DNA of 32,000 nucleotides from Paenibacillus selenitireducens (GCF_002021565.1 NZ_MSZX01000002.1:334554-366553), one strand, 5' to 3'. Positions 1 to 14,901 are shown, counted from the first letter of the stretch. Made by a program: numbers and translations. The notes: generated from the sequence alone by a model not told the origin.

Positions 1-261
1 CAGCCCACTACCTCAACCGGTATTATCTGTGCTGATTCCATAGATTCATCTGATCACAGGTGATGAAATCCTGCGAATGAGTGAGTATATGTGAGATAAA
101 CCCTTAAAAACGAGGGAAGGGACACGTTAGCTCAATAATCAACTATAACGCGGCTGCCGGTACAAATCGGTAGCCGCGTTATGCTTACTGGCAGTATAGT
201 TCGATAACTCCAGGGATAAAAATCCATAAATGTGAGACAACCGAGTGATTAAGAAAATAGC

Positions 262-301
262 GCCACCCTCGATCGGGGCCCCCGCCCCGGCCGAGGGTGG
301 C
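262..301. other. GC-rich nested hairpin (terminator-like or REP-like)
   Basis: GCCACCCTCG (262-271) pairs with CGAGGGTGGC (292-301). An inner CGGGGC (274-279) pairs with GCCCCG (284-289). There is no adjacent T-run, so function is unclear. Confidence 0.3.
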
Positions 302-451
302 TAACTGGAAATAAAACTTTTTATTACATATCGTTTCTCTCGATAGTGATAACTGTTTAAAAAAGATACTTCATTCCTTACTAACCCCCAGATAAGATAT
401 CGCTGTTTTAAATAACAAACAGGGAGCATAAGGATAAATTAGACTGTCAGG

Positions 452-667
452 GTGGGGGGGATGGCAGAGAAGGTGAATGAGTATGCGGACATTGATAAGC
501 GTGTATCATTGTTCATTGAAGGCAAACACGGAAAGATCGGCATCATTATCCCTGATCATGCACCAACTTATGAAGAGTGGAAAGAATTTAGAGAATCATT
601 AGTTGAAATTGCTTTGAACATCGTTAGGAATAAGCAAATATCATTAAAAAAGGAAACCGCTGAGTAA
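452..667 (+). CDS. hypothetical small protein (68-71 aa)
   Basis: ORF from the track. A purine-rich GGTGGGGGGG run lies just upstream of the ATG at 461; 452 is a GTG alternative. A strong intrinsic terminator follows. No family recognised. Confidence 0.4.
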   Translation: MGGMAEKVNEYADIDKRVSLFIEGKHGKIGIIIPDHAPTYEEWKEFRESLVEIALNIVRNKQISLKKETAE

Positions 668-687
668 GCTGGTTTCCTTTATTTTTT
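649..687 (+). terminator. intrinsic terminator after the small ORF
   Basis: AAAGGAAACC (649-658) pairs with GGTTTCCTTT (671-680) and is followed by TTTTTT (682-687). Confidence 0.6.
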
Positions 688-731
688 GAAGAACCTCAAT
701 AATTAACTTTTGGCACAATCAATATGAGTAA

Positions 732-812
732 GACAAAACAACCCGGGATATTGCGGGACAATTGTTTATCAGTGAGAAAACCGTGCGCAATCACATTTCG
801 AACGTGATGTAG
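732..812 (+). pseudogene. gerE: upstream segment of a split gerE-type LuxR-family HTH regulator gene (equivalent to GerE residues ~26-51); ends in a junction-created TAG
   Basis: Frame-3 translation reads DKTTRDIAGQLFISEKTVRNHISNVM then a stop. This matches the GerE HTH core (DKTTKEIASELFISEKTVRNHISNAM, B. subtilis sequence from memory). An in-frame TAA at 729-731 and the absence of a start codon mean the N-terminal ~25 codons are missing here. Confidence 0.8.
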
Positions 813-829
813 TATGAAACACACCCTTG
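776..829 (+). other. putative attL (host B arm + AA crossover + element P-prime arm)
   Basis: CATTTCG-AA-CGTGATG is centred on 801-802. The CGAACGT core (799-805) is identical to 14819-14825. The P-prime arm 803-826 is an imperfect inverted copy of 14797-14820. Confidence 0.6.
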
Positions 830-961
830 ATAATACAAAAATGTGTCTTAGGTCCCTTGTTTTGGAGGGGGTAATACTCTCGAAAACAGGGATAAATATC
901 CATCATACGACATTTTTTACTAAATATTGGAATTTTGAATATTCCATATTTAAGGATTGTC

Positions 962-970
962 TGCTACAAT
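962..970 (+). promoter_or_regulatory. possible extended -10 element (TGcTACAAT) for the pilus operon
   Basis: TGCTACAAT lies in the AT-rich 215-bp leader, ~55 bp upstream of the first pilus gene. No good -35 box at 17-bp spacing. Confidence 0.2.
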
Positions 971-1024
971 TGCGATGAAATTGGAGAATATTGTATGAAA
1001 TAGATATAGGAATGAGGGTGAACG

Positions 1025-2107
1025 ATGATTAAGAACGAACGGGGATTTGCTCTCCCGATGGTGCTGATCTTAGTAACAGCTTTATCCATTTTAGGAATGG
1101 CCCTTCTTGGAGTAAGCGTAAGCCAAGCTGCCCGAACCGTTCATCAGGAGAAAAAAGAGCAGGCATTCTACATAGCGAAGTCTGGTGCAGATGCTGTTGC
1201 GTCATATATTATTGATCACTATAATCCTGTCTCGGTGAGTACCACTGATGAAATAAAGAACCTCAATAAGGGTTACTTAGAGCAGGACATATCGCTAGGA
1301 ACGGGCACTTTTCGGGCAAATGTTACGAGAGGCCCCGACGATACAATTGTTATTTCTTCCAAGGGAACCTTGGGGAAAGTTACGAACCAGGCTTCGTTGA
1401 CGTTAGGAATGGATGAACCTGTGGTGACGATAGATCACGCGATTCTTGCATCTAAGGATATTGTAAATACAGGGGAGACCATCGTGAACAACGGAGGTAA
1501 TATTGCTGCCGGTGGGAGCATCAGCGGGGATGAAATCAAATTAGATGGGGGGAGTGCAGAATCAAATTATTCAGGAGCTTTTCCTCCTGCAATCCCTTTT
1601 CCAGATATAACAGGTTGGATCACTAAAACATTAGTGATTAATGCCTCAATAAGTGAATCGGCTTATTACGGAAGTTATTTGTCTTCAGACGCTGTATTTG
1701 AAATCAACATGACGAATAACAAGGACATGCATATCGTTTTCAAGAAGTTTGAACCAGCTACGACTGTTATTAATGTGACAGGTACCGGCAACGGGATCAT
1801 TCATCTTTATATGGATAATATCAAAGTAGCTGCATCGTTTACGATTAACAATTTATTGAGTAAAAAGGTAATTCTTCATGTCAAAGATTCAATCGATCTC
1901 AATGGGTCTTTTAATTTGCACGGTGTCCTTTTGTATGCTCCCACGGCGGAATACACTTCTACGAATGGGTCGATAGATCTAAAAGGTGCAATGGTTACTA
2001 AAAAAGTGACATTACAAGGTAGTAATGTGATCAACTACGACGCCTCCATCGCCAATCTCATCAAAGAATCTCGCAAATTTGAACGCAAGAACTGGAGAAA
2101 TTCCTAG
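1025..2107 (+). CDS. PilX/PilK-like large minor pilin (pilus tip or initiation subunit)
   Basis: N-terminus ERG/FALPMVLILVTALSILGMALLG is a prepilin-like hydrophobic helix without Glu at +5. The C-terminal pattern LHGVLLYAP...GSIDLKGAMV...NYD is typical of PilX/TadG-like proteins. RBS GAGGGTG precedes the start. Confidence 0.7.
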   Translation: MIKNERGFALPMVLILVTALSILGMALLGVSVSQAARTVHQEKKEQAFYIAKSGADAVASYIIDHYNPVSVSTTDEIKNLNKGYLEQDISLGTGTFRANVTRGPDDTIVISSKGTLGKVTNQASLTLGMDEPVVTIDHAILASKDIVNTGETIVNNGGNIAAGGSISGDEIKLDGGSAESNYSGAFPPAIPFPDITGWITKTLVINASISESAYYGSYLSSDAVFEINMTNNKDMHIVFKKFEPATTVINVTGTGNGIIHLYMDNIKVAASFTINNLLSKKVILHVKDSIDLNGSFNLHGVLLYAPTAEYTSTNGSIDLKGAMVTKKVTLQGSNVINYDASIANLIKESRKFERKNWRNS

Positions 2108-2125
2108 CCAATCGGAGTGAATGAC

Positions 2126-2581
2126 ATGAACGTACGAAAACAAGAAGAAGGATTTACGTTAATCGAAGTTTTGGCGTCTTTTGTCCTCCTTGTGATCATG
2201 GCAACGGTGTTAGTGAGCCTATTCTCCAACGGATTTCGCTCCATTGACAAATTCGGTGAGCGAAGCGAGCAAATGCATTTAGCTCGGCAAGAAGTGGAAC
2301 AAGCTACAGCCGGCACAGGAAGTAACCTGACTATCCATCAAATTAAAGGTACCGGCCAACTGAAAATTGAAGGCGAGACGGTTGAGAAACAGATTAGCGG
2401 AACTTCGGGCAGCAAAATGATATTGTTCATTCCAACACCAACGCCATGGAAGACAGGTGTATCGTACACCTTAGATGACCAGGTTCGATATAACGGGAAA
2501 AACTATCGATGTGTCATCCCGCATACCTCGAATGCCAGCAACAAGCCAACCAGTACAAGTTCTCCATGGGTTACCATGTAA
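2126..2581 (+). CDS. minor pilin (prepilin-type N-terminus) fused to a C-terminal CBM5/12-type chitin-binding module
   Basis: The leader ends in G/FTLIEVL, giving Glu at +5. The C-terminus WKTGVSYTLDDQVRYNGKNYRCVIPHTSNASNKPTSTSSPW fits the W..Y..G..V.YNGK.Y.C..PHTS...P...W pattern of ChtBD3/CBM5-12. The track start 2117 is a GTG; the ATG at 2126 has GGAG at good spacing. Confidence 0.8.
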   Translation: MNVRKQEEGFTLIEVLASFVLLVIMATVLVSLFSNGFRSIDKFGERSEQMHLARQEVEQATAGTGSNLTIHQIKGTGQLKIEGETVEKQISGTSGSKMILFIPTPTPWKTGVSYTLDDQVRYNGKNYRCVIPHTSNASNKPTSTSSPWVTM

Positions 2582-2644
2582 CTTGTATCCTATATATACT
2601 TTACTCTTCACGGAGAATTCGGATCTAAGAATAGGGGATGGTAT

Positions 2645-3202
2645 ATGCGATACGTGAAGCTTGACCAGAAAGGCCTTACGATCATTGAACTGTTAGCCGC
2701 CATCGTACTGCTTACGATTGTTTTGTCTCTAGCTTTTTCATCCTATGCGTTTGGGGTCAAGTCCTTTCAACGCGCGAATGAGCAGAGCGAGCTTCAAGAT
2801 CAGGTACGAATTGTCTCTCATGTTATTACCAGCAAATTGCGATATGCCAGCGAAGTCGAACTTTTATCATCCTGTCCTACGAACCTTACTGAAGGATTTA
2901 ACTACATCTGTATGAATTCGAACAAAAAAACCATTGATCTACACACCTACGATAAAACAACATCCGCTCACAAGCTTCAAAGCCTAAATACCGCAAGCTC
3001 CAAACATCCAATCACCTACGACATCGCGTTCCAAAAAACAAATGACCATCTCTTATCCTACAGCCTGAAGAGCATGGCTGATCAACAAAAATTTGACGTA
3101 CAATCTGAGATCTTGTTATTGAATTTGGATTTGAATGCAGTATCCATAAAAATAACGGGAAGCACACCTTATCAAGGCATTGCTTTCAAAGAAAACGCTT
3201 GA
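2645..3202 (+). CDS. minor pilin (prepilin-type N-terminal cleavage/methylation domain)
   Basis: QKG/LTIIELLAAIVLLTIVLSLAF has Glu at +5. RBS GGGGA is upstream. The gene sits between the other pilin genes and pilB. Confidence 0.75.
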   Translation: MRYVKLDQKGLTIIELLAAIVLLTIVLSLAFSSYAFGVKSFQRANEQSELQDQVRIVSHVITSKLRYASEVELLSSCPTNLTEGFNYICMNSNKKTIDLHTYDKTTSAHKLQSLNTASSKHPITYDIAFQKTNDHLLSYSLKSMADQQKFDVQSEILLLNLDLNAVSIKITGSTPYQGIAFKENA

Positions 3203-3227
3203 ACTTTTTGGACGATAAATCCAAGGG

Positions 3228-4904
3228 ATGAGAGGTGAAAACGTGAATAAACCTCGGAAACGCATGGGGGATCTACTCGTTGAGTCCGGACTCCTTACGA
3301 ATGAACAGCTGCAAATTGCCCTGAATGAAAAGAAACCAACACAAAAGCTAGGGGAAACGTTATTGCAGCTCGGGTTCATCACGGAGCAAAGACTTATTGA
3401 GGTTCTAGAGTTTCAATTAGGTATTCCTTATGTCAGCTTATTCAAATACCCGATAGATACCAAGCTGTTAAGCATCGTGTCCAAAGAAACCGCCGAACGT
3501 AACAAGCTAATCCCTCTGAAAAGAGAAAGCAATAAGCTATTTGTCGCCATGGCTGACCCAATGGATTTTTATGCGATTGATGATTTGCGGCTCTCGACGG
3601 GTTTTCAGATCGAAGTGTCCATTGCGACGAAGGAAGACATTCATAAAGCCATCAGCAAATATTACAGCCTAGTGGATAACATGGAAGACCTGTTAGGCGC
3701 AGACCTCAAGTTTAAAGAGAAGGATGAAGATACGGTTACCGATGAAGACTCTCCGGTCGTCAAATTGGTCAACCAAATGATTCTTGCAGCCTATCAGCAA
3801 AAAGCGAGTGATATTCACATCGATCCGCAAGAGTCAGATGTTGTGATTCGATATCGGGTTGACGGGATCCTGAGGACAGAACGGAAATTTGCGAAACAAA
3901 TGCTGAGCATGATCGTGGCAAGGATCAAAATTTTATCCAATCTGAACATTACCGAATTCAGAATTCCGCAAGACGGTCGGATCAAAATTAATCTGGATTC
4001 CAATGCGATAGATCTTCGGGTTTCCACACTGCCAACAGTCTATGGCGAAAAGGTCGTCATGCGAATTCTCGACATCGGAAGTTCAGCTATAGATTTGAAA
4101 AGAATGAATTTTCATCCCACGAATTATGAACGTTTTGTGCGCATGATCGAAAAGCCGACAGGCATTGTGCTGATTACCGGTCCTACGGGTTCTGGCAAAT
4201 CTTCTACACTCTATTCCGCTTTGGGACAATTAAATTCGCCGGATGTCAACATTATTACCGTGGAAGATCCGGTGGAGTATCGGCTGGAAGGGGTTAATCA
4301 GGTTCAAGTCAATGTGAGTACCGGGATGACATTCTCGAAGGGATTGCGTGCGATTTTGCGTCAGGATCCGAACATCGTTATGGTCGGTGAAATTCGGGAT
4401 ACAGAGACAGCGGAGATTGCAGTTCGTGCTTCGTTAACAGGGCACTTAGTCTTGAGCACGATCCACACGAATGACGCGATCAGCACGATTACGAGATTAA
4501 TAGACATGGGAATTGAGCCTTTTCTCGTAGCTGCCTCGTTGTCTGGCGTCGTATCACAGAGGCTTGTCCGGCGCATTTGTCAGGAGTGTAAGACGCTGCA
4601 GCTTCCTTCGCAGCGGGAGACTGAAATTTTCGAAAAGCGAGGATTACAGATTGAGGCTGTCGCGAGAGGAAAAGGCTGCGGCGCTTGCAATATGACAGGC
4701 TACAAAGGAAGGATCGCTATTCATGAATTATTGGTGATCGATGATGAAATTCGCCGAATGATCATGAACAATCGTTCCATGGAACAGATCAAGGAGATCG
4801 CGGTGATGAAAGGAACCATTTTTTTAATTGATGATGGCTTAATTAAAGTAAAAGAAGGCTATACAACCACAGAAGAAGTCCTGCGCGTAGCCATCAGTGA
4901 GTAA
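3228..4904 (+). CDS. pilB: type IV pilus assembly ATPase PilB (GspE family) with N-terminal MshEN-type domain
   Basis: Walker A GPTGSGKSS, the tetracysteine motif CQEC...CGAC, and GspE-type N-terminal domains are present. An alternative GTG start at 3243 has a better RBS. Confidence 0.93.
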   Translation: MRGENVNKPRKRMGDLLVESGLLTNEQLQIALNEKKPTQKLGETLLQLGFITEQRLIEVLEFQLGIPYVSLFKYPIDTKLLSIVSKETAERNKLIPLKRESNKLFVAMADPMDFYAIDDLRLSTGFQIEVSIATKEDIHKAISKYYSLVDNMEDLLGADLKFKEKDEDTVTDEDSPVVKLVNQMILAAYQQKASDIHIDPQESDVVIRYRVDGILRTERKFAKQMLSMIVARIKILSNLNITEFRIPQDGRIKINLDSNAIDLRVSTLPTVYGEKVVMRILDIGSSAIDLKRMNFHPTNYERFVRMIEKPTGIVLITGPTGSGKSSTLYSALGQLNSPDVNIITVEDPVEYRLEGVNQVQVNVSTGMTFSKGLRAILRQDPNIVMVGEIRDTETAEIAVRASLTGHLVLSTIHTNDAISTITRLIDMGIEPFLVAASLSGVVSQRLVRRICQECKTLQLPSQRETEIFEKRGLQIEAVARGKGCGACNMTGYKGRIAIHELLVIDDEIRRMIMNNRSMEQIKEIAVMKGTIFLIDDGLIKVKEGYTTTEEVLRVAISE

Positions 4905-5952
4905 TGGGAAGGGGAAGCTGGAGCAATTGGAGCAATTATTACGAATGGCTTTTGAACAAAAAGCATCGGACTTGCACCTTACGGTAGGTGTACCACCCAT
5001 GATCCGAATCAATGGGGATCTCAAGCAATATGGCGAAGATAATTTGAAGCCCGAAGACACGATCAAGATGGCGAAGAGCATTATGACTCGAGATCAATGG
5101 GAGGTTTTGCAGGAAAAGAGAGAGCTGGATTTTTCCTTTGGGATTAAGGATATGACTCGATTCCGTGTGAATGTGTACCATCAACGTTCTCAAATAGGTA
5201 TCGCGCTCCGCCTTATACCAACAACCATCCCGGCATTGGATACTTTGCATGTACCGGAAGTTTTGCGTCAGCTAAGCACCAAAGCGCAAGGATTGATTCT
5301 CGTCACAGGCCCGACGGGAAGCGGCAAATCAACGACGCTCGCTTCGATGATCGATGACATGAACAAGAGAATGCGCAAACATGTTATTACGTTAGAGGAT
5401 CCGATTGAGTACTTGCACCGCAACCAATATTCCGTCATTAATCAACGGGAAATCGGACATGATTCGCATAGCTTTTCGAACGGACTGCGGGCCGCGCTAC
5501 GGCAAGATCCCGATGTCATCCTGGTTGGAGAGTTACGAGATCTAGAGACGATATCCATTGCCATTACAGCGGCAGAGACGGGGCACTTGGTGCTTGGAAC
5601 CTTACATACGCCGAACGCGCCTGCAACGATTGATCGTATTTTGGACGTGTTTCCAGCCAATCAGCAAGGTCAAATTCGGATTCAACTTGCATCTGTTTTG
5701 ATCGCAATTCTATCACAACGGCTTTTCCCGACCATCGACAATCGAAGCAGGCGCGTGGCAACGGAATTGTTAATTAATAATCATGCTGTTGCCAACTTGA
5801 TTCGGAATGAGAAAGTCCACCAAATCTATAACTTCATGCAGACGGGGAAATCCTTTGGCATGCATACCCTGGAAATGTCCATGAACGATTTGATCGAGAA
5901 AAAGGTGATTACTCGAGAGGTCGCAGCACCATATTTTAGGGAGATGAGTTAA
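4897..5952 (+). CDS. pilT: type IV pilus retraction ATPase PilT
   Basis: 351 aa with ASDLHL near the N-terminus, Walker A GPTGSGKST, and LVGELRD / GHLVLGTLHT motifs. The GTG start overlaps the pilB stop by 8 nt. Confidence 0.92.
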   Translation: MSNGKGKLEQLEQLLRMAFEQKASDLHLTVGVPPMIRINGDLKQYGEDNLKPEDTIKMAKSIMTRDQWEVLQEKRELDFSFGIKDMTRFRVNVYHQRSQIGIALRLIPTTIPALDTLHVPEVLRQLSTKAQGLILVTGPTGSGKSTTLASMIDDMNKRMRKHVITLEDPIEYLHRNQYSVINQREIGHDSHSFSNGLRAALRQDPDVILVGELRDLETISIAITAAETGHLVLGTLHTPNAPATIDRILDVFPANQQGQIRIQLASVLIAILSQRLFPTIDNRSRRVATELLINNHAVANLIRNEKVHQIYNFMQTGKSFGMHTLEMSMNDLIEKKVITREVAAPYFREMS

Positions 5953-7160
5953 TGGCTCAGTTTGCATATATCGGTCGTGATCGTGCCGGCAAGTCGCGTA
6001 AAGGGAAAGTTTCTGGTTCAACCCGGAAAGAAGTTGTCATGGAACTTCGCGAGAAAGGGATTGCCATTTCCGAGATCGTCGAGCTGGAAGCAAATGTGTT
6101 CAATACGGATATTACCATTGGCAACCCAGTTAAGACGCAAGATTTCGTGATTTACCTCCGTCAGTTTGCAACGTTAATCGTGGCCGGCGTGTCGGTTGCG
6201 GAAGCTACGAAGATATTGGCGGAACAGACCGCAAGTAAAGCTTTGCGAAAGGCACTAATCAATGTAGAGGAAGAATTACGATCTGGTAAACCGTTGTCAC
6301 TTGCTGCAGCCCTTCATCCAAAAATCTTTCCACCCATGTTCATTAATTTGGTACAAGCCGGGGAAGCCACGGGGAACTTGGATGAGACGCTGGAACGATT
6401 AGCTTCTTTTTTTGAGAAACAGCACTATACCGTCCAAAAGGTGAAGTCCGCACTAACTTATCCAATTGCCATCACGATTGTCGCCATTGGGGTCGTTATC
6501 TTCCTGCTTACCAAAATCGTGCCCACGTTTGCCTCGATGTTTATGCAATTCGATGCAGAATTACCGTGGATTACGAAGACCGTCTTGGCGATCAGTGACT
6601 GGATGCAGCGTTTTTGGTGGCTCATTATCTTGCTGATTGTAGGGATCGTGGTTGGCATCACAGTGGCGATGAGAAATCCATCCAGTAAATATTATCTTGA
6701 TCATGCCATTCTCAAAATCCCGATCTTTGGGAAGTTAGTGCAGAAATCCGTCATTGCCAGATTTACAAGAACATTAAGCTCGTTGTTTAAAAGCTCGGTT
6801 CCGATTCTGGATGCGCTAAGTATCGTAGACAAAGTCGTCATGAATGAAGTCATGAGTAGGGTGTTGAAGGAGTCTAGGGTCTCGCTCCAAGGAGGGAAAT
6901 CGCTGTCTGCTCCAATGAAGCAGCATTGGATATTTCCGCCGCTCGTAACACAGATGATCGCCATTGGGGAACAATCTGGTTCTCTCGATTTCATGTTGGA
7001 AAAGGTCGCGGATTTCTATGAGAAAGAAGTCGATGCGACGGCGGATGCGCTGAAAGGCTTAATCGAGCCGATCATGATCATCATGCTGGCAGGTATTGTT
7101 GGATTTATTGTGTTGTCAATTATCGTGCCGATGTTCGATATTTTCAACCATGTCAAATAG
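5952..7160 (+). CDS. pilC: type IV pilus platform protein PilC (GspF family)
   Basis: 402 aa polytopic protein with the duplicated GspF-type architecture. The ATG overlaps the pilT stop (TAATG). Confidence 0.92.
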   Translation: MAQFAYIGRDRAGKSRKGKVSGSTRKEVVMELREKGIAISEIVELEANVFNTDITIGNPVKTQDFVIYLRQFATLIVAGVSVAEATKILAEQTASKALRKALINVEEELRSGKPLSLAAALHPKIFPPMFINLVQAGEATGNLDETLERLASFFEKQHYTVQKVKSALTYPIAITIVAIGVVIFLLTKIVPTFASMFMQFDAELPWITKTVLAISDWMQRFWWLIILLIVGIVVGITVAMRNPSSKYYLDHAILKIPIFGKLVQKSVIARFTRTLSSLFKSSVPILDALSIVDKVVMNEVMSRVLKESRVSLQGGKSLSAPMKQHWIFPPLVTQMIAIGEQSGSLDFMLEKVADFYEKEVDATADALKGLIEPIMIIMLAGIVGFIVLSIIVPMFDIFNHVK

Positions 7161-7211
7161 GTTATAGTGGCAACATTATAATAGATTACTAATTTTATAG
7201 GAGGAATAAGT

Positions 7212-7745
7212 ATGTTACAAATGGCAATGAAAAGGGTCAAAAATGAGAAAGGGTTAACGCTGATTGAGTTACTGGCAGTGGTTGTTATTTTGGGGATCGT
7301 CGCGGCTATTGCGATACCTGCGATTGGGGGATTGATTGACAGAACGAAAAAAGACGCACATGTTGCGAATGCAATTCAAATGATAGCAGCTGCAAAAATG
7401 GCTGTTGTGGGTGATGAGAGAGCAAGACCTACCGCTACAACAATTACAAAATATATATCTTTAGACTGGTTAGTTGTAAATGGATATCTTGATCCAGTGA
7501 AGGATCCCGATGGTACAACGAATGGTTACTCAGTTGGTACTGCTGCTGCCACACCTCCACCTAGTACTGTAGCTACAGCAGGTTCCCATGTTTTAGCAAC
7601 ATTAACCACATCAACTGGTGCAATTTCTTATAGCGTATTTCTAAAAAATGATACACGCGGAGTACGAGAAACTGCAACTAGTACAGGTACTGCAGCTACT
7701 GACTACGTGAAAGAATCAACCGTGAACCGTGACGCAGTTAAATAG
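7212..7745 (+). CDS. pilA: major type IV pilin PilA
   Basis: NEKG/LTLIELLAVVVILGIVAAIAIPA is a canonical class III signal with Glu at +5. A strong AGGAGG RBS precedes the start. The C-terminal half is rich in Thr/Ser/Ala. A hairpin follows the gene. Confidence 0.88.
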   Translation: MLQMAMKRVKNEKGLTLIELLAVVVILGIVAAIAIPAIGGLIDRTKKDAHVANAIQMIAAAKMAVVGDERARPTATTITKYISLDWLVVNGYLDPVKDPDGTTNGYSVGTAAATPPPSTVATAGSHVLATLTTSTGAISYSVFLKNDTRGVRETATSTGTAATDYVKESTVNRDAVK

Positions 7746-7810
7746 GTCAACTCCATAGTCACTTGTGGCCTAGAAGTTAATCTTGTTACAATCAGACATC
7801 TATAACTAAT

Positions 7811-7833
7811 CACGCCCTCGTTAGGGGGGCGTG
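7811..7833 (+). terminator. hairpin after pilA (probable leaky terminator or attenuator)
   Basis: CACGCCC (7811-7817) pairs with GGGCGTG (7827-7833), followed only by a weak TT-rich tract. It lies between the major pilin gene and pilD. Confidence 0.4.
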
Positions 7834-7862
7834 TTATCCATTGTCCTAACTGGAGGCAAACC

Positions 7863-8615
7863 ATGACCGCGTTTTATTCCATTTATGCTGCGATTGCAGG
7901 TTTATTGTTAGGCTCCTTTTATAATGTGGTAGGTTTACGGGTTCCCTTAGGCGAATCGATCATTCGACCACGCTCGCATTGCACGACATGCCAACGTACA
8001 CTGGGAGCCAGCGAGCTGGTCCCTTTTTTTTCTTATCTTTTCTTAAGGGGTGCCTGCCGGGGATGCGGTACGAAAATATCATTCCTTTATCCGCTAACCG
8101 AAATGGGGACTGCGCTGTTATTTGTTAGCATGCCATGGTTCATCGGCTGGTCGCCGGAATTATTCGTCGCATGGGCGTTAATCTCCCTGTTGATTATCAT
8201 TTGTATTTCAGATCTTCGGTATATGTTAATTCCGAACAAAGTGTTGCTGGTCTTTTCGGTTATTTTTCTCGGATTGCGTCTCCTCCTTCCAGTAGATCCT
8301 TGGTGGGATATGTTCCTGGGTGCCGGTGTTGGCTTTGCGTTGCTGTTACTTATCGCGATCGTGAGCAAGAACGGCATGGGCGGAGGAGATATTAAATTGT
8401 TTGCCGTCCTCGGCATGGTCTTAGGATGGAAAGGTGTATTACTTGCTTTCCTGTTATCTTGCTGCTATGGCACACTCATCGGCATCGTTGGAATGCTTCT
8501 CGGGAAAGTACGAAGAGGGAAGCCAATGCCGTTCGGACCTGCCATTGCATTAGGCACATTAACTGCATATTTGTGGGGAGAAGCACTTCTTACATGGTAT
8601 TACCAGTTTCTATGA
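7863..8615 (+). CDS. pilD: prepilin peptidase / N-methyltransferase PilD (A24 family)
   Basis: N-terminal Cys pairs CTTC...CRGC are present. The catalytic Asp motifs are ISDLRYMLIPN and GGGDIKLF. The protein is polytopic. Confidence 0.92.
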   Translation: MTAFYSIYAAIAGLLLGSFYNVVGLRVPLGESIIRPRSHCTTCQRTLGASELVPFFSYLFLRGACRGCGTKISFLYPLTEMGTALLFVSMPWFIGWSPELFVAWALISLLIIICISDLRYMLIPNKVLLVFSVIFLGLRLLLPVDPWWDMFLGAGVGFALLLLIAIVSKNGMGGGDIKLFAVLGMVLGWKGVLLAFLLSCCYGTLIGIVGMLLGKVRRGKPMPFGPAIALGTLTAYLWGEALLTWYYQFL

Positions 8616-8633
8616 TGTAGTGGAGGAGAAAAG

Positions 8634-9698
8634 ATGAGAGCAAGTCGGACAACGCGTGTAAATCAAGAACATCATACCCATGTAGCAAACATTGTGAACA
8701 GAAAGCAGCCGAAAAAGAAAATGGTCAGCTTGATGATCAAAGACCATGTCATTCGATATATGGATGCCAAGCGACCGAATTTGCGGGGAGCAACCGCCTT
8801 CGGGGAATATGATTTGCCTTCAGGCATCATTCATGAAGGCAGGATTGCAGAGCCGGATCGGTTGCGTACCATTCTGAAGGATTGCATTCAAAAGTGGAAA
8901 CTCAAAGACCGAGAAGTGCAGTTTATTGTCCCGGATTCTGTCGTGATCGTACGGAAGATTGAGATTTCGGCGGAGATCGAGGAGGAGGAGATCAAGGGAC
9001 ATCTATATTTGGAATTAGGAACGAACATCCATCTTCCCTTTGAGGATCCGATATTTGATATTGATTTTCTAGGACGCTCCGATGAGAAACAAGAAATTCT
9101 ATTATTTGCCGCACCGGAGCAGATTGTTAACGAATACGCACAGATCTTGACCAGCGCAGGTCTGAAGCCTGTTGCAGCCGATGTGTCTTCGCTGGCCATC
9201 TATCGTTTATTTTATAAAGTGAATGATGAATTGGAATTGGACATTGTCTCGGAAGCACCGGTTCTATCCGTTCAATTCGACCTGCAGACGGTAACGGTAG
9301 GCGTCATTCATAAGCATAAATTAATGCTTCTTCGTCAATTTCGGATGAATCTATCCATCGATAACTGGGAACGGCAAACGAACAAAAGAGATGTCAATAC
9401 ACCGGTGTGGATCGGCGATGAGAGCTACTTAACCTATGAAATTAATGTAATGATCGGAGAGATTCAGCGCGTCATCAGCTTCTATCGTTCCGTTACGAAT
9501 CATCATGAAGATGAGATTGAAACGATAATATTAACGGGAGATTATCCGTATTTAGAGGATATCGCAACCAATCTGCATCAACATTTTGAAAAAATGCCTT
9601 TTACGTTCTCAAAAGAATTGTTCGAGACGCAATCGAAGGAACTCGTTCCACCGAAATATTATTTGCCGCTAGGATTAGCCCTAAAGGGGGGCGTCTAA
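8634..9698 (+). CDS. pilM: type IV pilus assembly protein PilM (actin-like ATPase fold)
   Basis: 354 aa, GGAGGAG RBS, position directly upstream of pilN with an overlapping stop/start, and PilM-like sequence organisation. Confidence 0.8.
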   Translation: MRASRTTRVNQEHHTHVANIVNRKQPKKKMVSLMIKDHVIRYMDAKRPNLRGATAFGEYDLPSGIIHEGRIAEPDRLRTILKDCIQKWKLKDREVQFIVPDSVVIVRKIEISAEIEEEEIKGHLYLELGTNIHLPFEDPIFDIDFLGRSDEKQEILLFAAPEQIVNEYAQILTSAGLKPVAADVSSLAIYRLFYKVNDELELDIVSEAPVLSVQFDLQTVTVGVIHKHKLMLLRQFRMNLSIDNWERQTNKRDVNTPVWIGDESYLTYEINVMIGEIQRVISFYRSVTNHHEDEIETIILTGDYPYLEDIATNLHQHFEKMPFTFSKELFETQSKELVPPKYYLPLGLALKGGV

Positions 9699-10264
9699 TG
9701 CTGAGTGAGATTAACTTGCTCCCCCAACGGGAGCAGCGAAGCATTTTTTTTGTCATTGGGATCACGGTCATATTGGCTTTCGGTTTGCTTAGCACTGGCG
9801 TTCTCTTCTTCCAATATCAGTCCCTGAAGACGGATCAAGATCGACAACAGGCGGAAGCGAAGACGGTCGAGAAAATGATTGAAATCGAATCGCAAAAACT
9901 CCTGCAAGGCGCGAGTACCTCGGAAGTAGGTCAATATGAACAGATTGTTCACACGATCGAGCAACTGCCGGTGGATACGATCCGAATTCTTGACCAATTA
10001 TCTGCGGCCTTGCCTCAGAGCGGCTTCTTTACTTCCTATTCTTATCAGGATCCTGGAACGGTGTCGGTGATTGCGGATTTCGGGACATCAGAGGATGCTG
10101 CGCAATATCTTTATCATTTAACATATGCGGATTGGGTACGCAAAATCGAGATCAGCTCTCTAGTAAAACAAGATAGTGGGATAAAGGTCCTTTACAAAGC
10201 GACGTATACGCTCGAATTGAAACGGGATGTATTCGCTGAAGTGAAAGGAGCGGGTACAGAATGA
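9698..10264 (+). CDS. pilN: type IV pilus assembly protein PilN
   Basis: The N-terminal EINLLPQRE signature is followed by a single TM helix. The gene is translationally coupled to pilM and pilO. Confidence 0.85.
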   Translation: MLSEINLLPQREQRSIFFVIGITVILAFGLLSTGVLFFQYQSLKTDQDRQQAEAKTVEKMIEIESQKLLQGASTSEVGQYEQIVHTIEQLPVDTIRILDQLSAALPQSGFFTSYSYQDPGTVSVIADFGTSEDAAQYLYHLTYADWVRKIEISSLVKQDSGIKVLYKATYTLELKRDVFAEVKGAGTE

Positions 10265-11037
10265 ACGCGAAACAGGTAAGAATATTAACCTTGGCTGTCT
10301 CGTGTATTCTCATCCTTTCCGGGTTGCTATTGTTTTATTTCAATCGTATCCAGCCTACACAAAGCCAAGTGAAGACGTTGAAAAGTAAAATTGCAACAGA
10401 TAAAAAGGTGCTGGAAAAGCTGCAATCGCAGGCCCATGAACAGCAGCAGAGTAAGGCGGATCTTCTGGAGTTGCAGCGTAAGGTTCCTGTCGAAGCCTTT
10501 GTGGACCAGATGATTCTCGATCTACGGAAGGATGAACAACAATCCAAGAGTAAGATTCGTAATATGGGGTTGAGCTATACGAATACATCATTAAATGAAT
10601 TGAGTCAAGTGATAGGTATTCCTAACCTACAATCACCGAACGCGACAGTTTCGCAGCCTGTCAATACAGCAGCATCAAATGAAGGAACTTCAACGGTGCC
10701 AGCTGATACGAGTGCCAATCCAGCACCATCAAGCGAAAATCCCGCAGTGCAGCTGGAAGTTTACAAAATAGGCCTCACCTTAAGCGTTGAATCACCGACC
10801 TATAACGATTTCAAAACCTTTGTACTTGGGATCCAACAACTAGACCGCGTTATTCAAATTGATGCCATATCATTCACGGATACCGCCAACACCTATAACC
10901 TCACGGTATCCGCATTCTATGCGCCGCAATTCCAAGGATTTGAGGAACGGCTTCCACGGGCCTCGTTCCCGGCACCAAGCGGCAAGACTGTACCGATTCA
11001 AGTGACGAATCCCGTAACAGAACCTGCAGGAACTTAA
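10261..11037 (+). CDS. pilO: type IV pilus assembly protein PilO-like
   Basis: An N-terminal TM helix and coiled-coil segment precede a conserved C-terminal domain. There is an internal Ser/Thr/Pro/Asn-rich insert. The start overlaps the pilN stop (ATGA). Confidence 0.7.
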   Translation: MNAKQVRILTLAVSCILILSGLLLFYFNRIQPTQSQVKTLKSKIATDKKVLEKLQSQAHEQQQSKADLLELQRKVPVEAFVDQMILDLRKDEQQSKSKIRNMGLSYTNTSLNELSQVIGIPNLQSPNATVSQPVNTAASNEGTSTVPADTSANPAPSSENPAVQLEVYKIGLTLSVESPTYNDFKTFVLGIQQLDRVIQIDAISFTDTANTYNLTVSAFYAPQFQGFEERLPRASFPAPSGKTVPIQVTNPVTEPAGT

Positions 11038-11056
11038 GAAAGAGGGTGAACGTACG

Positions 11057-12499
11057 ATGTCCATTCGTGTTCTCATTGTTGATGATACGAAATTTCTACG
11101 CCTGATGTTAACGGATATATTAACAAAATCCGGGTATGAGGTTGTAGGTCAAGCAGAGAACGGTGTTATTGCCGTCGACAAGTTCAGAGAATTGCGGCCC
11201 GATCTGGTGATTATGGATATTACGATGCCAGAGATGGACGGAATTACGGCGTTAAAGGAGATTAGGGCCATCGAGCCGCAGTCTGTCATCTTAATCTGCT
11301 CTGCGATGAGTCAGCGAGATCTCATTTCCAAGGCATTAAAGGCAGGCGCGAACAATTATGTGATGAAGCCGTTCGAACCTGAGCGCGTCAAGGAGATCAT
11401 TCTTGAAGTTATGCCACTAATGGAGAACAACAAAAAAGAAAAAGCATCCATAAAAGCTCCGATTGAGCCGGAACCTGTGCAAGAATCCGTGGTGACGGAA
11501 GACCAGGCAACTAAATTGCGCAAATCGTTTGCTGAACAGACCAGTGAACAGTATATCTTATCTGAAGCAGCCGTAGCGCCGATAGAAGACTCGTTTCCAG
11601 AACCAGAACTAGAATCACCAATAGAACCTCGCCTTGAAGTGAAGGAAGCACTTGTCTCGGAAACGCCCGACTTGGTGGAACAGGTAGAACCCATGTTGGA
11701 AGCAAGAATATCTTCCGAAGCGGAAGAAGAGTTCGGCACATTACTCGAAGGCATTGAAAATCCAACCCCAACAGGGATCACTGCGGATCATGAACGAAGC
11801 AACCCTGGCGTATTGGAAGAAATAACAGCTGCATCTGCGGAAGCTGCAGTTTCGGTTACCGCTGTCAACGAGATAAATATCTCCGCGGAATCCCTCCCGG
11901 GTGATTTTACGCATCTGTCCAAACGTCTGGAGGCTGAGCTCAAGCATACCCCTGAGGAGCCTATCTCTAATACATCAGAAGAGCAGCAAGCTAGCGCAGA
12001 GGAAGTATCTTTAGACGAGAACAACGAAGAACAGACTGGAACGAATCATCTTGATGAGAATGAACTTGATGAACAAGAAGGATCACCTTCCCGTTCATCG
12101 AATCCTGCCGTCTGGTTCGAACAATTGATTTTTTCCAATTCCAATAAAACGGGGGATGCTGAGATGGCAAGAAATCCGCAAATGATAGATGCTGAGGTCA
12201 GACAGGAACATCATGTGGCAACAATCGATCAAGGTAGCAGTTCAAGCATGCTGCCAGAACTGAAACGCAAAAATATGCGGAACTTCGCAAGCAGTATCAT
12301 GTGCAAATTTTCAGAACAGGTCGATGGGAAGGAAATGGACTATTTCGTTGTCTACAACGAATTTGACAAGTCGATTCGGATCGATATGATCTCTCCCGAT
12401 GAGAAGCGCAACAGCATTCAATTATCGCTCGACGGGTTCACTTTTATTATGGAATGGCTCGAACAGAAGGGCGTACGCATCGATAAAGTCTTAGATTAA
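11057..12499 (+). CDS. CheY-like response regulator receiver fused to a ~230-aa acidic low-complexity linker and an uncharacterised C-terminal domain
   Basis: Residues 1-120 align closely with Bacillus CheY as I remember it (ILIVDD, PDLV.MDITMPEMDGITALKEI, CSAM, VMKPF). The rest is Glu/Pro/Ser-rich, followed by a ~100-aa globular-looking tail. RBS AGAGGGTG precedes the start. Confidence 0.85.
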   Translation: MSIRVLIVDDTKFLRLMLTDILTKSGYEVVGQAENGVIAVDKFRELRPDLVIMDITMPEMDGITALKEIRAIEPQSVILICSAMSQRDLISKALKAGANNYVMKPFEPERVKEIILEVMPLMENNKKEKASIKAPIEPEPVQESVVTEDQATKLRKSFAEQTSEQYILSEAAVAPIEDSFPEPELESPIEPRLEVKEALVSETPDLVEQVEPMLEARISSEAEEEFGTLLEGIENPTPTGITADHERSNPGVLEEITAASAEAAVSVTAVNEINISAESLPGDFTHLSKRLEAELKHTPEEPISNTSEEQQASAEEVSLDENNEEQTGTNHLDENELDEQEGSPSRSSNPAVWFEQLIFSNSNKTGDAEMARNPQMIDAEVRQEHHVATIDQGSSSSMLPELKRKNMRNFASSIMCKFSEQVDGKEMDYFVVYNEFDKSIRIDMISPDEKRNSIQLSLDGFTFIMEWLEQKGVRIDKVLD

Positions 12500-12529
12500 T
12501 AGAAGCCATCAAAGTTAAGGAGGACAATC

Positions 12530-12817
12530 ATGAAGAACAAGCAAATCAGTCAATTAACTTTGTGCGATTCTTATAACCATTCTCAGATCATACCGATCGC
12601 CAATGCGAGGCAAATCTTTGACAAAATCGTTAAGGTCTACGTCAGCCGTGAAGATATCTATAATCACTCGAAGACGCCGAGGGAGTTCCAAGCCTATCAA
12701 AACATTGATAGCGAAACCTTGCTTATTGTCGTGAGTATCCGCAGTGATTGGTGGACGCCATGGAAAGGCATGGTGACGGAAGACGTTTATTTTTATCGAG
12801 AACCTTTTGCGCAATGA
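12530..12817 (+). CDS. hypothetical protein (95 aa); candidate accessory or directionality factor
   Basis: A strong AAGGAGG RBS lies 7 nt upstream of the ATG. No family recognised. The gene sits between the pilus/regulator block and the recombinase gene. Confidence 0.5.
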   Translation: MKNKQISQLTLCDSYNHSQIIPIANARQIFDKIVKVYVSREDIYNHSKTPREFQAYQNIDSETLLIVVSIRSDWWTPWKGMVTEDVYFYREPFAQ

Positions 12818-12908
12818 GGTACAGAAGTGAATGAAGAAGCGGGCAACTCCAATCAGGGAGAGGCTCGTTTCTTTTTTTTGTTCTATAAAGGCGCGGAAAG
12901 GAGCGGTT

Positions 12909-13061
12909 ATGGTACAAGACGGCAGGTTCATAGACATAATTATCACAAGCGGAGAGGAGCGGACCGAATGCCTAAAGACGCCAAACCATCGTATCGAATA
13001 CATGTACATCCCGGAAAGGAGAATAGAGAACACATCATGGATGAGCTTGCCAAGCAAGTGA
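12909..13061 (+). CDS. possible small ORF (~50 aa)
   Basis: This is an internal ATG of the 12831 ORF, preceded by AAAGGAG at 6-nt spacing. No family recognised. The competing overlapping frames look compositionally implausible. Confidence 0.2.
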   Translation: MVQDGRFIDIIITSGEERTECLKTPNHRIEYMYIPERRIENTSWMSLPSK

Positions 13062-13199
13062 TTCAGCGCAATGTAGTGGATTTTCACATGCAAAACGAAA
13101 GGGTAAAAAAAATCCCCCTACCAGGACGAGCAGGCTGAACCAATAAAGGAAGCAGACATTTTCTAATGATGAAAATGAATCGTCATGGGGGAGGCGATA

Positions 13200-14762
13200 A
13201 TGAGAGCAGCCATTTATGTACGTGTTAGTACGACCAAAGACAGTCAGAAGGATAGCCCGGAACATCAAATTGCAGCTTGTAAATATTTTGCGGAGGACAT
13301 GGGGTGGGAGACAGCGGAAGACATGATATATGAAGACCGCGAATCTGGGACGAATATTACCGATAGGCTAGCGATTCAGCAAGCGTTAAAGGATGCACAT
13401 CAGGGCGCATTCCAAGTGATTATTTTCGCCGCATTATCGCGGTTCGCACGTGATATTGGGGATTCGATCAATCTCAAGCGTAAGCTGGTGAATGCCCTTC
13501 GGATTCGCCTCATCTCCATCGACGACCATTATGATTCCGACCGAGATGATGAGATGTTATTCTCGATTATCTCGAGTATTAATCAGTCCTTGAGCGAGCA
13601 GATCAGCCGAAGTACACGTCGGGGGAAGCGGGAATCCGCGTTAAAAGGGAATTTTACAGGAAATCGGCCACCGTATGGATATGACAAAGAAACGAGAAAT
13701 GGCTTAAAGACATTGGTACCCAATGAGAACCAGAAGATGGTTGTTGAGACGATTTTCCAACTGTATACAGCCAATCATTTCGGGGAGAAATCTATCGCTG
13801 CTTATTTGAATGATCAAGGAATCCCCTCCCCGAAGGATGGAAAATGGGGTATTACCACGATACAACGCATCTTGCAAAACGAAGCCTATGTCGGGAAAAA
13901 TCGTTCCTCGAAATTTGAAATTCGAAAAGTGTATACCAATGTCGATGATATGACAGAACGTAAAAAAGTATTAGTTCAAAAGCCAAAACGCGAATGGCGT
14001 TACGCGCATAACAGCTGGACGCATCAAGGCATTATTGATGAAGCAACGTTCCGGCTTGCTGAGAATCTTCGCTTGCAACGCGGCGGTGGACAACGTGGCG
14101 GGCCTCGCCAAAAGGTTAATGTTTTCGCGGGAATGATGAAATGCGCACATTGCGGTTCCTCCATGGTCAGCATGAAATCCACACGTCGAATTCGAGAGCA
14201 ATCGAGACGAGATTACCGATACCTCATTTGTTCCAGAAGAAGAAGGCAAGGAGAGTCAGGCTGCTGCAACAATTATTGGCTGCCGTATGATCCCTTTCAC
14301 GAAGATCTCATCCAATGCATATCACAAATATTACGCAGTACATTTTCGCCAGAGGAGCTGTTGGAGAAACATAAGCGTCTTGTCCAAGTCACGCACACGG
14401 ATCTCGAATCCGAAATGAAAAAACGCAAAAAGTGGATTATCGAAAATCGTAAATGTCTGATGGAGCTTCGCAAAGAACGACTCAAAGGGCATGTGTTGGA
14501 TGAACATCAATATGAATTAGAAAAAAGTCATTATGAGCGGGAAATCGTGCAGCATGAGAGCAGACTCATTCAACTTCAGCAGGAATGGCAGCGTAAAACG
14601 GATATGACGGATTTATACGAGAAGACGATGGAACGGTTAAATGATCTGTTGAATGTATCCTTCGAAACCTTTGATGATAGCCAACTTACATTGAAAAAAC
14701 TCATCTCTCGTATAGAAGCGGATCGTCAGGGAAATGTACATGTGTTCATGACATTTGATTAG
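13200..14762 (+). CDS. large serine recombinase (resolvase catalytic domain + recombinase domain + zinc ribbon + coiled coil), SpoIVCA/SprA-like
   Basis: The sequence shows MRAAIYVRVST with catalytic Ser10, ALSRFARD, GNRPPYGYDKE, the Cys cluster CAHCGS...CSRRRRQGESGCC, and a C-terminal heptad-rich region. The ATG at 13200 has a GGGGAGG RBS; the track start is 13185. Confidence 0.9.
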   Translation: MRAAIYVRVSTTKDSQKDSPEHQIAACKYFAEDMGWETAEDMIYEDRESGTNITDRLAIQQALKDAHQGAFQVIIFAALSRFARDIGDSINLKRKLVNALRIRLISIDDHYDSDRDDEMLFSIISSINQSLSEQISRSTRRGKRESALKGNFTGNRPPYGYDKETRNGLKTLVPNENQKMVVETIFQLYTANHFGEKSIAAYLNDQGIPSPKDGKWGITTIQRILQNEAYVGKNRSSKFEIRKVYTNVDDMTERKKVLVQKPKREWRYAHNSWTHQGIIDEATFRLAENLRLQRGGGQRGGPRQKVNVFAGMMKCAHCGSSMVSMKSTRRIREQSRRDYRYLICSRRRRQGESGCCNNYWLPYDPFHEDLIQCISQILRSTFSPEELLEKHKRLVQVTHTDLESEMKKRKKWIIENRKCLMELRKERLKGHVLDEHQYELEKSHYEREIVQHESRLIQLQQEWQRKTDMTDLYEKTMERLNDLLNVSFETFDDSQLTLKKLISRIEADRQGNVHVFMTFD

Positions 14763-14795
14763 CTTGCTGTTCTTGCGGATACGCTCCTCTATATT

Positions 14796-14848
14796 CATGT
14801 GTGCTTCAAACCCCATCACGAACGTAATGCAGAAACTGAATGTAAAGG
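14796..14848 (+). other. putative attR (element P arm + AA crossover + host B-prime arm)
   Basis: CATCACG-AA-CGTAATG is centred on 14821-14822. By hand alignment, the P arm 14797-14820 matches the reverse complement of 803-826 at 18 of 24 positions. Confidence 0.6.
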
Positions 14849-14901
14849 GTCGTTCGCAAGCGGTTGTCGAGTTGATCAAGCTTGGGGAGCTAAAAATCTA
14901 A
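14821..14901 (+). pseudogene. gerE: downstream segment of the split gerE-type gene (equivalent to GerE residues ~49-74, with stop)
   Basis: The translation NVMQKLNVKGRSQAVVELIKLGELKI-stop matches the GerE C-terminus (NAMQKLGVKGRSQAVVELLRMGELEL, from memory). There is no start codon or RBS of its own. Confidence 0.8.

Follow-up and report, generated by a model that had tools for sequence, protein, structure and literature searches.

Multiple interruption of gerE, with displacement of its 5′-end and promoter, in Paenibacillus selenitireducens

The gerE gene of Paenibacillus selenitireducens was found to be multiply interrupted; the sequence makes it near certain that its 5′-end has been displaced by a second element and its promoter by two more. 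Four elements with a total length of 52,792 bp, present at three sites, divide the 225 bp gene into five fragments. GerE is a 74-aa late mother-cell regulator of the LuxR/FixJ type. The window is the whole stretch of 32,000 nucleotides that was analysed; it belongs to an 806 kb contig (C12) of this genome (G000), and C12 positions of the gerE pieces are given on the plus strand. The features of the locus, in order, were as follows.

C12:296434–296448 (core), plus strand: F0, the first fragment in order, with the putative sigma-K-type promoter, the leader, the ribosome-binding site (RBS) and TTGAAGGGTAG
C12, between the core copies at 296434 and 318666: element 0a, 22,232 bp, with the tyrosine integrase IntA
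C12:318666–318691, plus strand: 26 bp copy of gerE codons 1–7, between elements 0a and 0b
C12, between the core copies at 318666 and 326630: element 0b, 7,964 bp, with the tyrosine integrase IntB
C12:326634–326718, plus strand: gerE codons 1–29, between elements 0b and 1
C12:326719–335284 (approximate): element 1, 8,576 bp, with its left end ~7.83 kb before the window start and its final 729 bp at window 1–729
C12:326723–328396, minus strand: LSR1, a large serine recombinase with an intact frame of 557 aa
Window 452–667, plus strand: 71-aa ORF (68 aa if the start is ATG 461, behind GGGTGGGGGGG)
Window 646–687, plus strand: terminator-like hairpin and U-run closing the 71-aa ORF, from folding
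Window 708–721, plus strand: element-side inverted-repeat arm of attR1, TTTTGGCACAATCA, 14 bp
Window 730–739, plus strand: attR1 core, AAGACAAAAC, with an identical attL1 copy at C12:326707–326716
Window 732–809, plus strand: middle gerE fragment (codons 26–51), bounded by TAA 729–731 and TAG 810–812
Window 799–805, plus strand: attL2 core, CGAACGT, at the left end of the 14 kb element 2
Window 806–14818, plus strand: element 2, 14,020 bp, at the gin site, carrying LSR2
Window 13185–14762, plus strand: LSR2, large serine recombinase carried by element 2
Window 14819–14901, plus strand: attR2 core (14819–14825) and 3′ gerE fragment (codons 49–74, TAA 14899–14901)

The coding fragments of gerE

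The whole genome was searched with Bacillus subtilis GerE, and the relationship was later confirmed against PDB 1FSE. This revealed three short collinear pieces, all on the plus strand of C12.

C12:326637–326723, plus strand: match to GerE residues 2–30
Window 729–812, plus strand: match to GerE residues 25–52
Window 14803–14895, plus strand: match to GerE residues 43–73

No second gerE paralog was found in the genome; all other GerE matches were response regulators of at least 200 aa. An earlier note, made from the window alone, had offered a functional gerE elsewhere as one explanation of the incomplete gene, which does not hold for a genome with no second small gerE.

In the window, the frame of the middle gerE fragment opens abruptly at GAC (732–734), right behind an in-frame TAA (729–731), as that note had described and translation confirmed. 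The sequence from 721 reads ...aatATGagTAAGACAAAACAACCCGGG..., and 732–809 translates as DKTTRDIAGQLFISEKTVRNHISNVM before ending at TAG 810–812. The alignment of this fragment with residues 25–52 of B. subtilis GerE showed 75% identity. All three forward frames upstream of 732 were translated and none of them encoded the first GerE helix (LT.RE.EVF.LLVQ), in agreement with the earlier reading. The ATG at 724 does lie in a different frame from the gerE piece and yields MSKTKQPGILRDNCLSVRKPCAITFRT, so that the window holds nothing usable for gerE upstream of 732.

The first ~25 codons, described in the earlier note as lost, are displaced. Codons 1–29 were found at C12:326634–326718, 8,576 bp upstream of the middle piece and on the same strand, beginning TTG AAG GGT AGC and encoding MKGSDHKTKFLLTNREREVFELLVQDKTT, after which the frame runs through PY to a stop. 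The earlier supposition of a further interrupting element to the left of the window was correct in this respect; its count of three pieces was too low, since two tyrosine-integrase elements also part the promoter and RBS from the start codon and gerE is thus in five fragments.

In-silico joining of the three coding pieces at their shared cores gave 74 codons with no stop and no frameshift. The joined protein matched Pfam PF00196 over the full domain (residues 12–64, E = 1.9e-23), and its best PDB match was 1FSE, B. subtilis GerE, which aligned ungapped from 1–73 to 1–73 (E = 7.9e-31). It was 89–97% identical to the intact GerE of ~30 relatives. Like GerE it is a stand-alone protein of 74 aa consisting of the GerE/LuxR helix-turn-helix domain alone, and orthology is indicated by the single small gerE copy, by the F0 promoter, which is conserved in 27 relatives, and by flanking genes common to the sister species G001.

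Element 1 and its candidate directionality factor

LSR1 has the full domain set of a large serine recombinase in Pfam (Resolvase, Recombinase and Zn_ribbon_recom). An alignment with SprA (yokA) of SPbeta showed 42% identity over 542 aligned columns, covering LSR1 residues 13–549 of 557 (E = 3e-155), with conservation of the catalytic motif YLR(K/R)SRQD (YLRKSRQD in LSR1 aligned with YLRRSRQD in SprA). LSR1 and LSR2 were 26% identical. The two ends of element 1, attL1 and attR1, share a 10 bp common core and a perfect 14 bp inverted repeat; the perfect complement of the attR1 arm is TGATTGTGCCAAAA, at C12:326727–326740 within the last LSR1 codons, and 6 bp separate the attL1 core from the stop codon of LSR1. 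Crossover at the core would join ...VQDKT to TRDIA..., and this joint was in frame in silico. The predicted rejoined host junction is ...GTGCAAGACAAAACAACCCGG..., also written ...CTGCTGGTGCAAGACAAAACAACCCGGGATATT..., and that of the circular element (attP1) is ...ATATGAGTAAGACAAAACTACGCCTTACTG.... As in intervening elements of the skin, SPbeta and gin class, element 1 lies within the coding sequence of a mother-cell sporulation gene (codons 29|26 of gerE), with its own recombinase at the junction. The missing 5′-end of gerE, a second recombinase and an att pair, which the earlier note had suggested might be found by looking left of the window, were all recovered as codons 1–29, LSR1 and attL1/attR1.

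Recombinases related to LSR1 (45–55% identical) were found in nine other genomes among 401 sampled from the family; a locus search of the genome-contig collection with LSR1 returned a single match, which was actinobacterial and unrelated. In two of the nine genomes, G060 and G079, the recombinase lies beside a gerE fragment broken at the same codons. The gerE piece of G060 comprises residues 1–30 and that of G079 residues 27–74, and the junction codons Asp26-Lys27-Thr28 are the same in both. The site-1 element of G079 is ~41 kb long and in the opposite orientation. The site-1 break is found in two other genera. These data bear on the suggestion, also made in the earlier note, that the 5′-end of gerE disappeared through a deletion or rearrangement, or else through an error of assembly. 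The one point in its favour is the lack of the N-terminus within the window. Against it, codons 1–29 are found 8.6 kb upstream in the same 806 kb contig, in frame and in collinear order, the break bears a duplicated core and inverted repeats beside a recombinase gene, and the same break recurs in the two other genera. An origin by deletion or error is on this evidence extremely improbable.

Left of the window, element 1 carries IS3 and IS110 transposase fragments, a TetR regulator and a 999-aa ABC-2/YhgE-like membrane protein; domain annotation of its ORFs recognised no phage or transfer genes. It has shrunk to 8.6 kb, against 38–61 kb for its relatives, yet both end genes and both att sites are intact. 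From its sequence, element 1 resembles an SPbeta-type prophage that has eroded down to the parts needed for excision. Its only intact cargo is the TetR gene and the gene of the 999-aa protein (C12:329583–333236; L021 7583–11236). In the latter protein a long, coiled-coil-like middle part is combined with a C-terminal domain of the ABC-2/YhgE type, an architecture that resembles that of proteins annotated as phage infection protein.

At the other end of element 1 is the 71-aa ORF, which the earlier note had called unrelated and had described as followed by a strong terminator. Folding bore out the terminator, a hairpin and U-run at 646–687 with a free energy of −19.7 kcal/mol (z = −4.45; 0 of 200 shuffles folded as well), which a simple terminator scan missed because the stem is bulged. 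The ORF itself is most likely the directionality factor of element 1, given its SprB-like position and its pairing with the LSR1 family. SprB (yotN, 58 aa) is encoded by the last gene of SPbeta, which faces outward, is followed by a terminator, and lies ~40 bp from att at the end opposite to sprA; in position, orientation and terminator the 71-aa ORF agrees with this arrangement, and it is of similar size.

An exhaustive HMMER search with the 71-aa ORF revealed a family of 21 small proteins that share the motif DIxxRVxxxIxGKHGRIGIIxPDxxPTxEEW. One homologue is at the same spot in the site-1 element of G060, and exactly one homologue per recombinase copy was found in eight of the ten LSR1-family genomes, G000 included. 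Outside G000 this pairing comprised eight copies in seven genomes (G079, G116, G316, G347, G384 with two copies, G196 and G060). For seven of these copies, in six genomes, the homologue lies at the far end of a 38–61 kb element; in G000, 6.6 kb separate LSR1 from the 71-aa ORF, which occupies the opposite end of the 8.6 kb element. In G196 (C1:907246–909176; L105) the homologue is directly beside the recombinase gene, 141 bp upstream of it, an arrangement that an attP site, or a minimal element, would be expected to show. In G384 (C11:678076–753902) two identical ~38 kb elements were found in tandem; both encode a recombinase of the LSR1 family, 55% identical to LSR1 itself, together with a homologue of the 71-aa ORF.

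Comparison of a 23-sequence family alignment with SprB by hhalign gave a weak, collinear alignment of 48 columns (P = 0.009, probability 4%). BLASTP did not align SprB with the 71-aa ORF, tblastn of the ORF against a phage collection gave no match, PHROGs returned nothing for it, and a homologous-protein search that preceded the exhaustive HMMER search recovered only the ORF itself. The AF2 model of the ORF is a beta-hairpin followed by a long helix (pLDDT 83), for which a Foldseek search of BFVD, uninformative for a protein of this shape, gave no match below E = 0.1. As position and co-occurrence, and not proven homology, are the basis of the assignment, the 71-aa ORF is termed a candidate directionality factor and the positional equivalent of SprB.

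The displaced promoter and the re-use of insertion sites

The 130 bases upstream of the TTG start were strongly conserved among 27 relatives with an intact gerE. The conserved features were gCACCA-N17-CATAnnnTA, a leader beginning TTGACTGTATCCCTTAACCTTGT, and GCAAGGAGGGGTGAC just before TTG. The first of these agrees with the consensus AC-N17-CATAnnnTA and suggests that the gerE promoter is of the sigma-K type. In G000, G001 and G020 the promoter, leader and RBS were absent beside the start codon. In G000 the leader was present at C12:296378–296400 on the same strand, 30.2 kb upstream; a sigma-K-type promoter, which the earlier note had expected to the left of the window, was thus found at this further distance from codons 1–29. 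The promoter, leader, RBS and TTGAAGGGTAG of F0 run into a terminator-like hairpin, which is followed by a tyrosine integrase gene.

The core AC(T/C)ATTGAAGGGTAG was present in three copies, at 296434, 318666 and 326630, and the middle copy continues as CGACCATAAAA, which corresponds to gerE codons 4–7. As there are three core copies, the middle one with gerE codons, the intervening DNA consists of two tandem elements, 0a and 0b. Element 0a encodes IntA, nagA/nagB/RpiR-type proteins, a radical-SAM protein, and phage tail-terminator, sheath, baseplate, holin and amidase proteins. Element 0b encodes IntB, an AraC/dCache regulator and a sugar ABC transporter, with a 63-aa HTH_17/excisionase-like gene at its right end. 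IntA and IntB were 46% identical and both have the Pfam domains Arm-DNA-bind_4, Phage_int_SAM and Phage_integrase. Arm-type-like repeats were found near both ends of each element (TTGGCGGCA in 0a and TGGTG(C/T)TA in 0b). Both elements therefore have the integrase domains, direct-repeat core and arm-type repeats of integrative elements that use a tyrosine integrase. G001 and G020 have homologous integrases (46–55% identical) at the corresponding left junction. Site 0 is occupied in G000, G001 and G020; in G060, G079, G007 and G015 the leader is directly upstream of gerE.

A strong terminator-like hairpin follows right after the core in all three of the site-0 genomes (L115 1560–1620, and the left junctions of L114 and L116), and transcripts from the gerE promoter should consequently stop on entering the element. 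The ~60-nt leader (C12:296378–296433) was almost invariant in 27 genomes belonging to many genera and several families (L022–L051). Conservation of this degree greatly exceeds what would be expected of an ordinary untranslated leader, and the leader may therefore act as a regulatory RNA or contain an operator. A mini-ORF of six codons, ATGTACAACCTTGACTATTGA, with its own Shine-Dalgarno sequence, AAGGAAGG, is present where element 0b ends on the right (C12:326590–326640; L021 4590–4640), and the TGA of this mini-ORF overlaps the gerE TTG start. Translational coupling could occur here if gerE were transcribed from within 0b without excision.

The inferred attP2 of element 2 contains the palindrome CATCACG-AA-CGTGATG. 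The site of this element overlaps the gin site of Bacillus cereus at Ile47-Ser-Asn49, with a predicted crossover at AA. In a family-wide DNA search two candidates were scored per genome and suspects were checked one by one; because of the two-candidate scoring, this search could not count multi-piece genes. Interruption at site 2, the gin position, appeared to be common, with ~40 of the 401 family genomes looking split on the basis of weak two-piece DNA matches, and explicit cases were G001, G007, G015, G042, G055, G060, G143, G161, G223, G250 and G304. Site 1 was occupied in G000, G060 and G079. The gerE of G060 is in three pieces (sites 1 and 2) and that of G001 has been hit at sites 0 and 2, with G000 being the extreme. 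A perfect 9 bp tandem repeat, which reads PRAPRAPRA... or GTKGTKGTK..., was found within the site-2 element of G060 (C10:54406–54662; L100 4406–4662).

Fate of the split gene and comparison with known systems

Excision of all four elements in the mother cell, which would rebuild gerE, is the best-supported mechanism, and we infer that it probably operates. Each element would be excised in late sporulation by its own recombinase and directionality factor, element 1 by LSR1 with the 71-aa protein, and once all excisions were complete the 225 bp gene would stand behind its own promoter. A point against this mechanism is that it requires four separate excisions, none of which may fail, within a single cell.

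Alignment of the joined gerE of G000 with that of the sister species G001 showed differences at 19 of 225 bases, all of them silent and one in the stop codon. The two joined proteins were identical at 74 of 74 positions (pS = 0.38, pN = 0). The site-2 recombinases of the two genomes were 46% identical, against 87% DNA identity in the flanks, and a site-2 insertion older than the split of G000 and G001 was rejected on that account. As the site-2 elements differ between the two genomes, the signal cannot demonstrate selection on an already split allele; it spans the whole time since the two genomes split, and the insertions could be more recent.

An alternative is that gerE is a dead relic of successive insertions and is not expressed, its fragments being intact only because the insertions are recent, and that the strain sporulates without GerE or poorly. 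The demanding restoration of one small gene from four elements would fit such a relic. So would the distribution of the gene in the same family: at the DNA level gerE was undetected in 22 of 24 genomes of one genus (g8: G009, G043, G070 and others), so that loss of gerE is possible, and it was absent at the protein level from G009, the one genome checked. The upstream motif search also fits, as a properly spaced −35 (sigma-E/K) was found before none of LSR1, the 71-aa ORF, the integrases and the excisionase-like gene, and no convincing sporulation promoter was thus found for the excision genes; CATA-type −10 motifs without a properly spaced −35 were present upstream in four of eight cases (the 71-aa ORF and its homologues). 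Against a relic are the exclusively silent differences between G000 and G001, for which we estimate a chance of ~1e-11 for 18 of 18 silent coding changes (assuming that ~3/4 of random changes alter the protein), together with fragments that are free of stops and frameshifts and the lack of a further gerE copy that could compensate. Around an intact recombinase, 71-aa ORF, core and inverted repeats, element 1 is heavily decayed, a pattern that is expected only if excision is selected and that argues that it still is. A dead gene is on balance unlikely.

Loss of gerE in the sister genome G002 was considered and rejected, as the flanks of the locus sit at both ends of a 6.9 Mb contig. In this nearly closed assembly (C1) the flanks were located at 2550–4862 and 6903031–6903315, at opposite contig ends, with gerE missing. 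The assembly break might be of the kind caused by a mixture of excised and integrated forms.

It is also conceivable, though we rate it as distinctly unlikely, that the four are ordinary mobile elements that act as an on/off switch, with excision at low frequency or under stress giving a working gerE in a subpopulation and heterogeneity among spores. The phage tail, holin and amidase genes of element 0a, the classical integrase, arm-site and excisionase features of 0a and 0b, and the re-use of the sites by different elements across genomes, which indicates active mobility, are what such a switch would predict. The strong purifying selection on the gerE fragments nevertheless argues for regular use of the rebuilt gene, and mobility alone does not readily account for an element 1 that has kept a recombinase and a candidate factor but has no recognisable genes for transfer or phage functions.

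A wider reading of the locus, less probable than excision as such and rather unlikely, is that three mechanistically different recombination systems, all firing in the mother cell, put the 225 bp gerE together from its five fragments, which are spread over 53 kb. These would be the two related tyrosine integrases at the start codon, the SprA-type serine recombinase at codons 26–29 and the gin-site serine recombinase at codons 47–50. Among spore-formers, no earlier case of developmental gene reconstitution would then have involved several elements or depended on a tyrosine integrase, and gerE would be a preferred landing pad for unrelated mobile elements in the Paenibacillaceae. In the literature searched, no gene of a spore-former was interrupted by more than one element, the single cases being skin, SPbeta, vfbin, gin and yin; serine recombinases only, and no tyrosine integrase, were involved in the reconstitution of developmental genes in spore-formers; and multiple elements in one gene were described for cyanobacterial nif genes only.

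If this reading is true, GerE is made only when every excision succeeds. The rebuilding of genes by excision is a known tie of late sporulation genes to terminal differentiation, and here the last regulator of the mother-cell cascade bears four elements at three sites, each of which recurs in other genera. A rebuilt gerE would raise the questions of how unrelated excision systems are synchronised, whether the order of excision matters, whether tyrosine integrases can join the sporulation programme, and why a gene of 225 bp draws so many elements. The locus also forms a natural set of orthogonal recombinase/att pairs within 225 bp.

The closest known system is gin of B. cereus ATCC 10987, an element unlike a phage, which splits the 225 bp gerE and encodes the large serine recombinase GirC and GirX (Abe et al. 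2017, PMC5595907). Experiments demonstrated that gin is excised in mid-sporulation, rebuilding gerE (PMC5595907). The host gene is the same in G000, and element 2 is essentially at the gin site (Ile47-Ser-Asn49). Element 1 differs in its position at codons 26–29 (Asp26-Thr29), a site not described in PMC5595907, and in its recombinase, LSR1 being of the SprA type and not of the GirC type. In addition, gin encodes three serine recombinases (girA, girB and girC) and girX, whereas element 1 encodes one, and gin is a single interruption whereas the gerE of G000 has four elements at three sites.

SPbeta in spsM of B. subtilis uses a SprA/SprB unit, and its excision rebuilds spsM (Abe et al. 2014, PMC4191935). 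Element 1 resembles it in having its recombinase, which is 42% identical to SprA, at one end and, at the opposite end, a small gene that faces outward and is closed by a terminator; an att arm overlaps the end of the recombinase gene in both. As a remnant it also parallels the defective SPbeta relatives, which keep the excision genes (PMC5499854). The target is different, being gerE codons 26–29 in place of spsM. Any relationship of the 71-aa protein to SprB is very remote, element 1 is without phage genes, and excision, which has been demonstrated for SPbeta, is predicted for element 1.

The skin element in sigK (SpoIVCA; B. subtilis and Clostridioides difficile) is likewise a degenerate prophage in a late mother-cell regulatory gene that is removed by its own serine recombinase with a directionality factor. 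It differs from the elements of G000 in its gene and recombinase lineage, and in that there is one element per gene.

For multiplicity, the comparison is with heterocyst-forming cyanobacteria, in which nif genes are multiply interrupted (Hilton et al. 2016, PMC4874684) and nifBHDK of Calothrix NIES-4101 is in 13 parts (PMC11249958). The phylum, cell type and genes are different from those of G000. The likeness is that one gene or operon is cut by more than one element, that the elements are independent and bring recombinases of their own, and that restoration takes place in a terminally differentiated cell.
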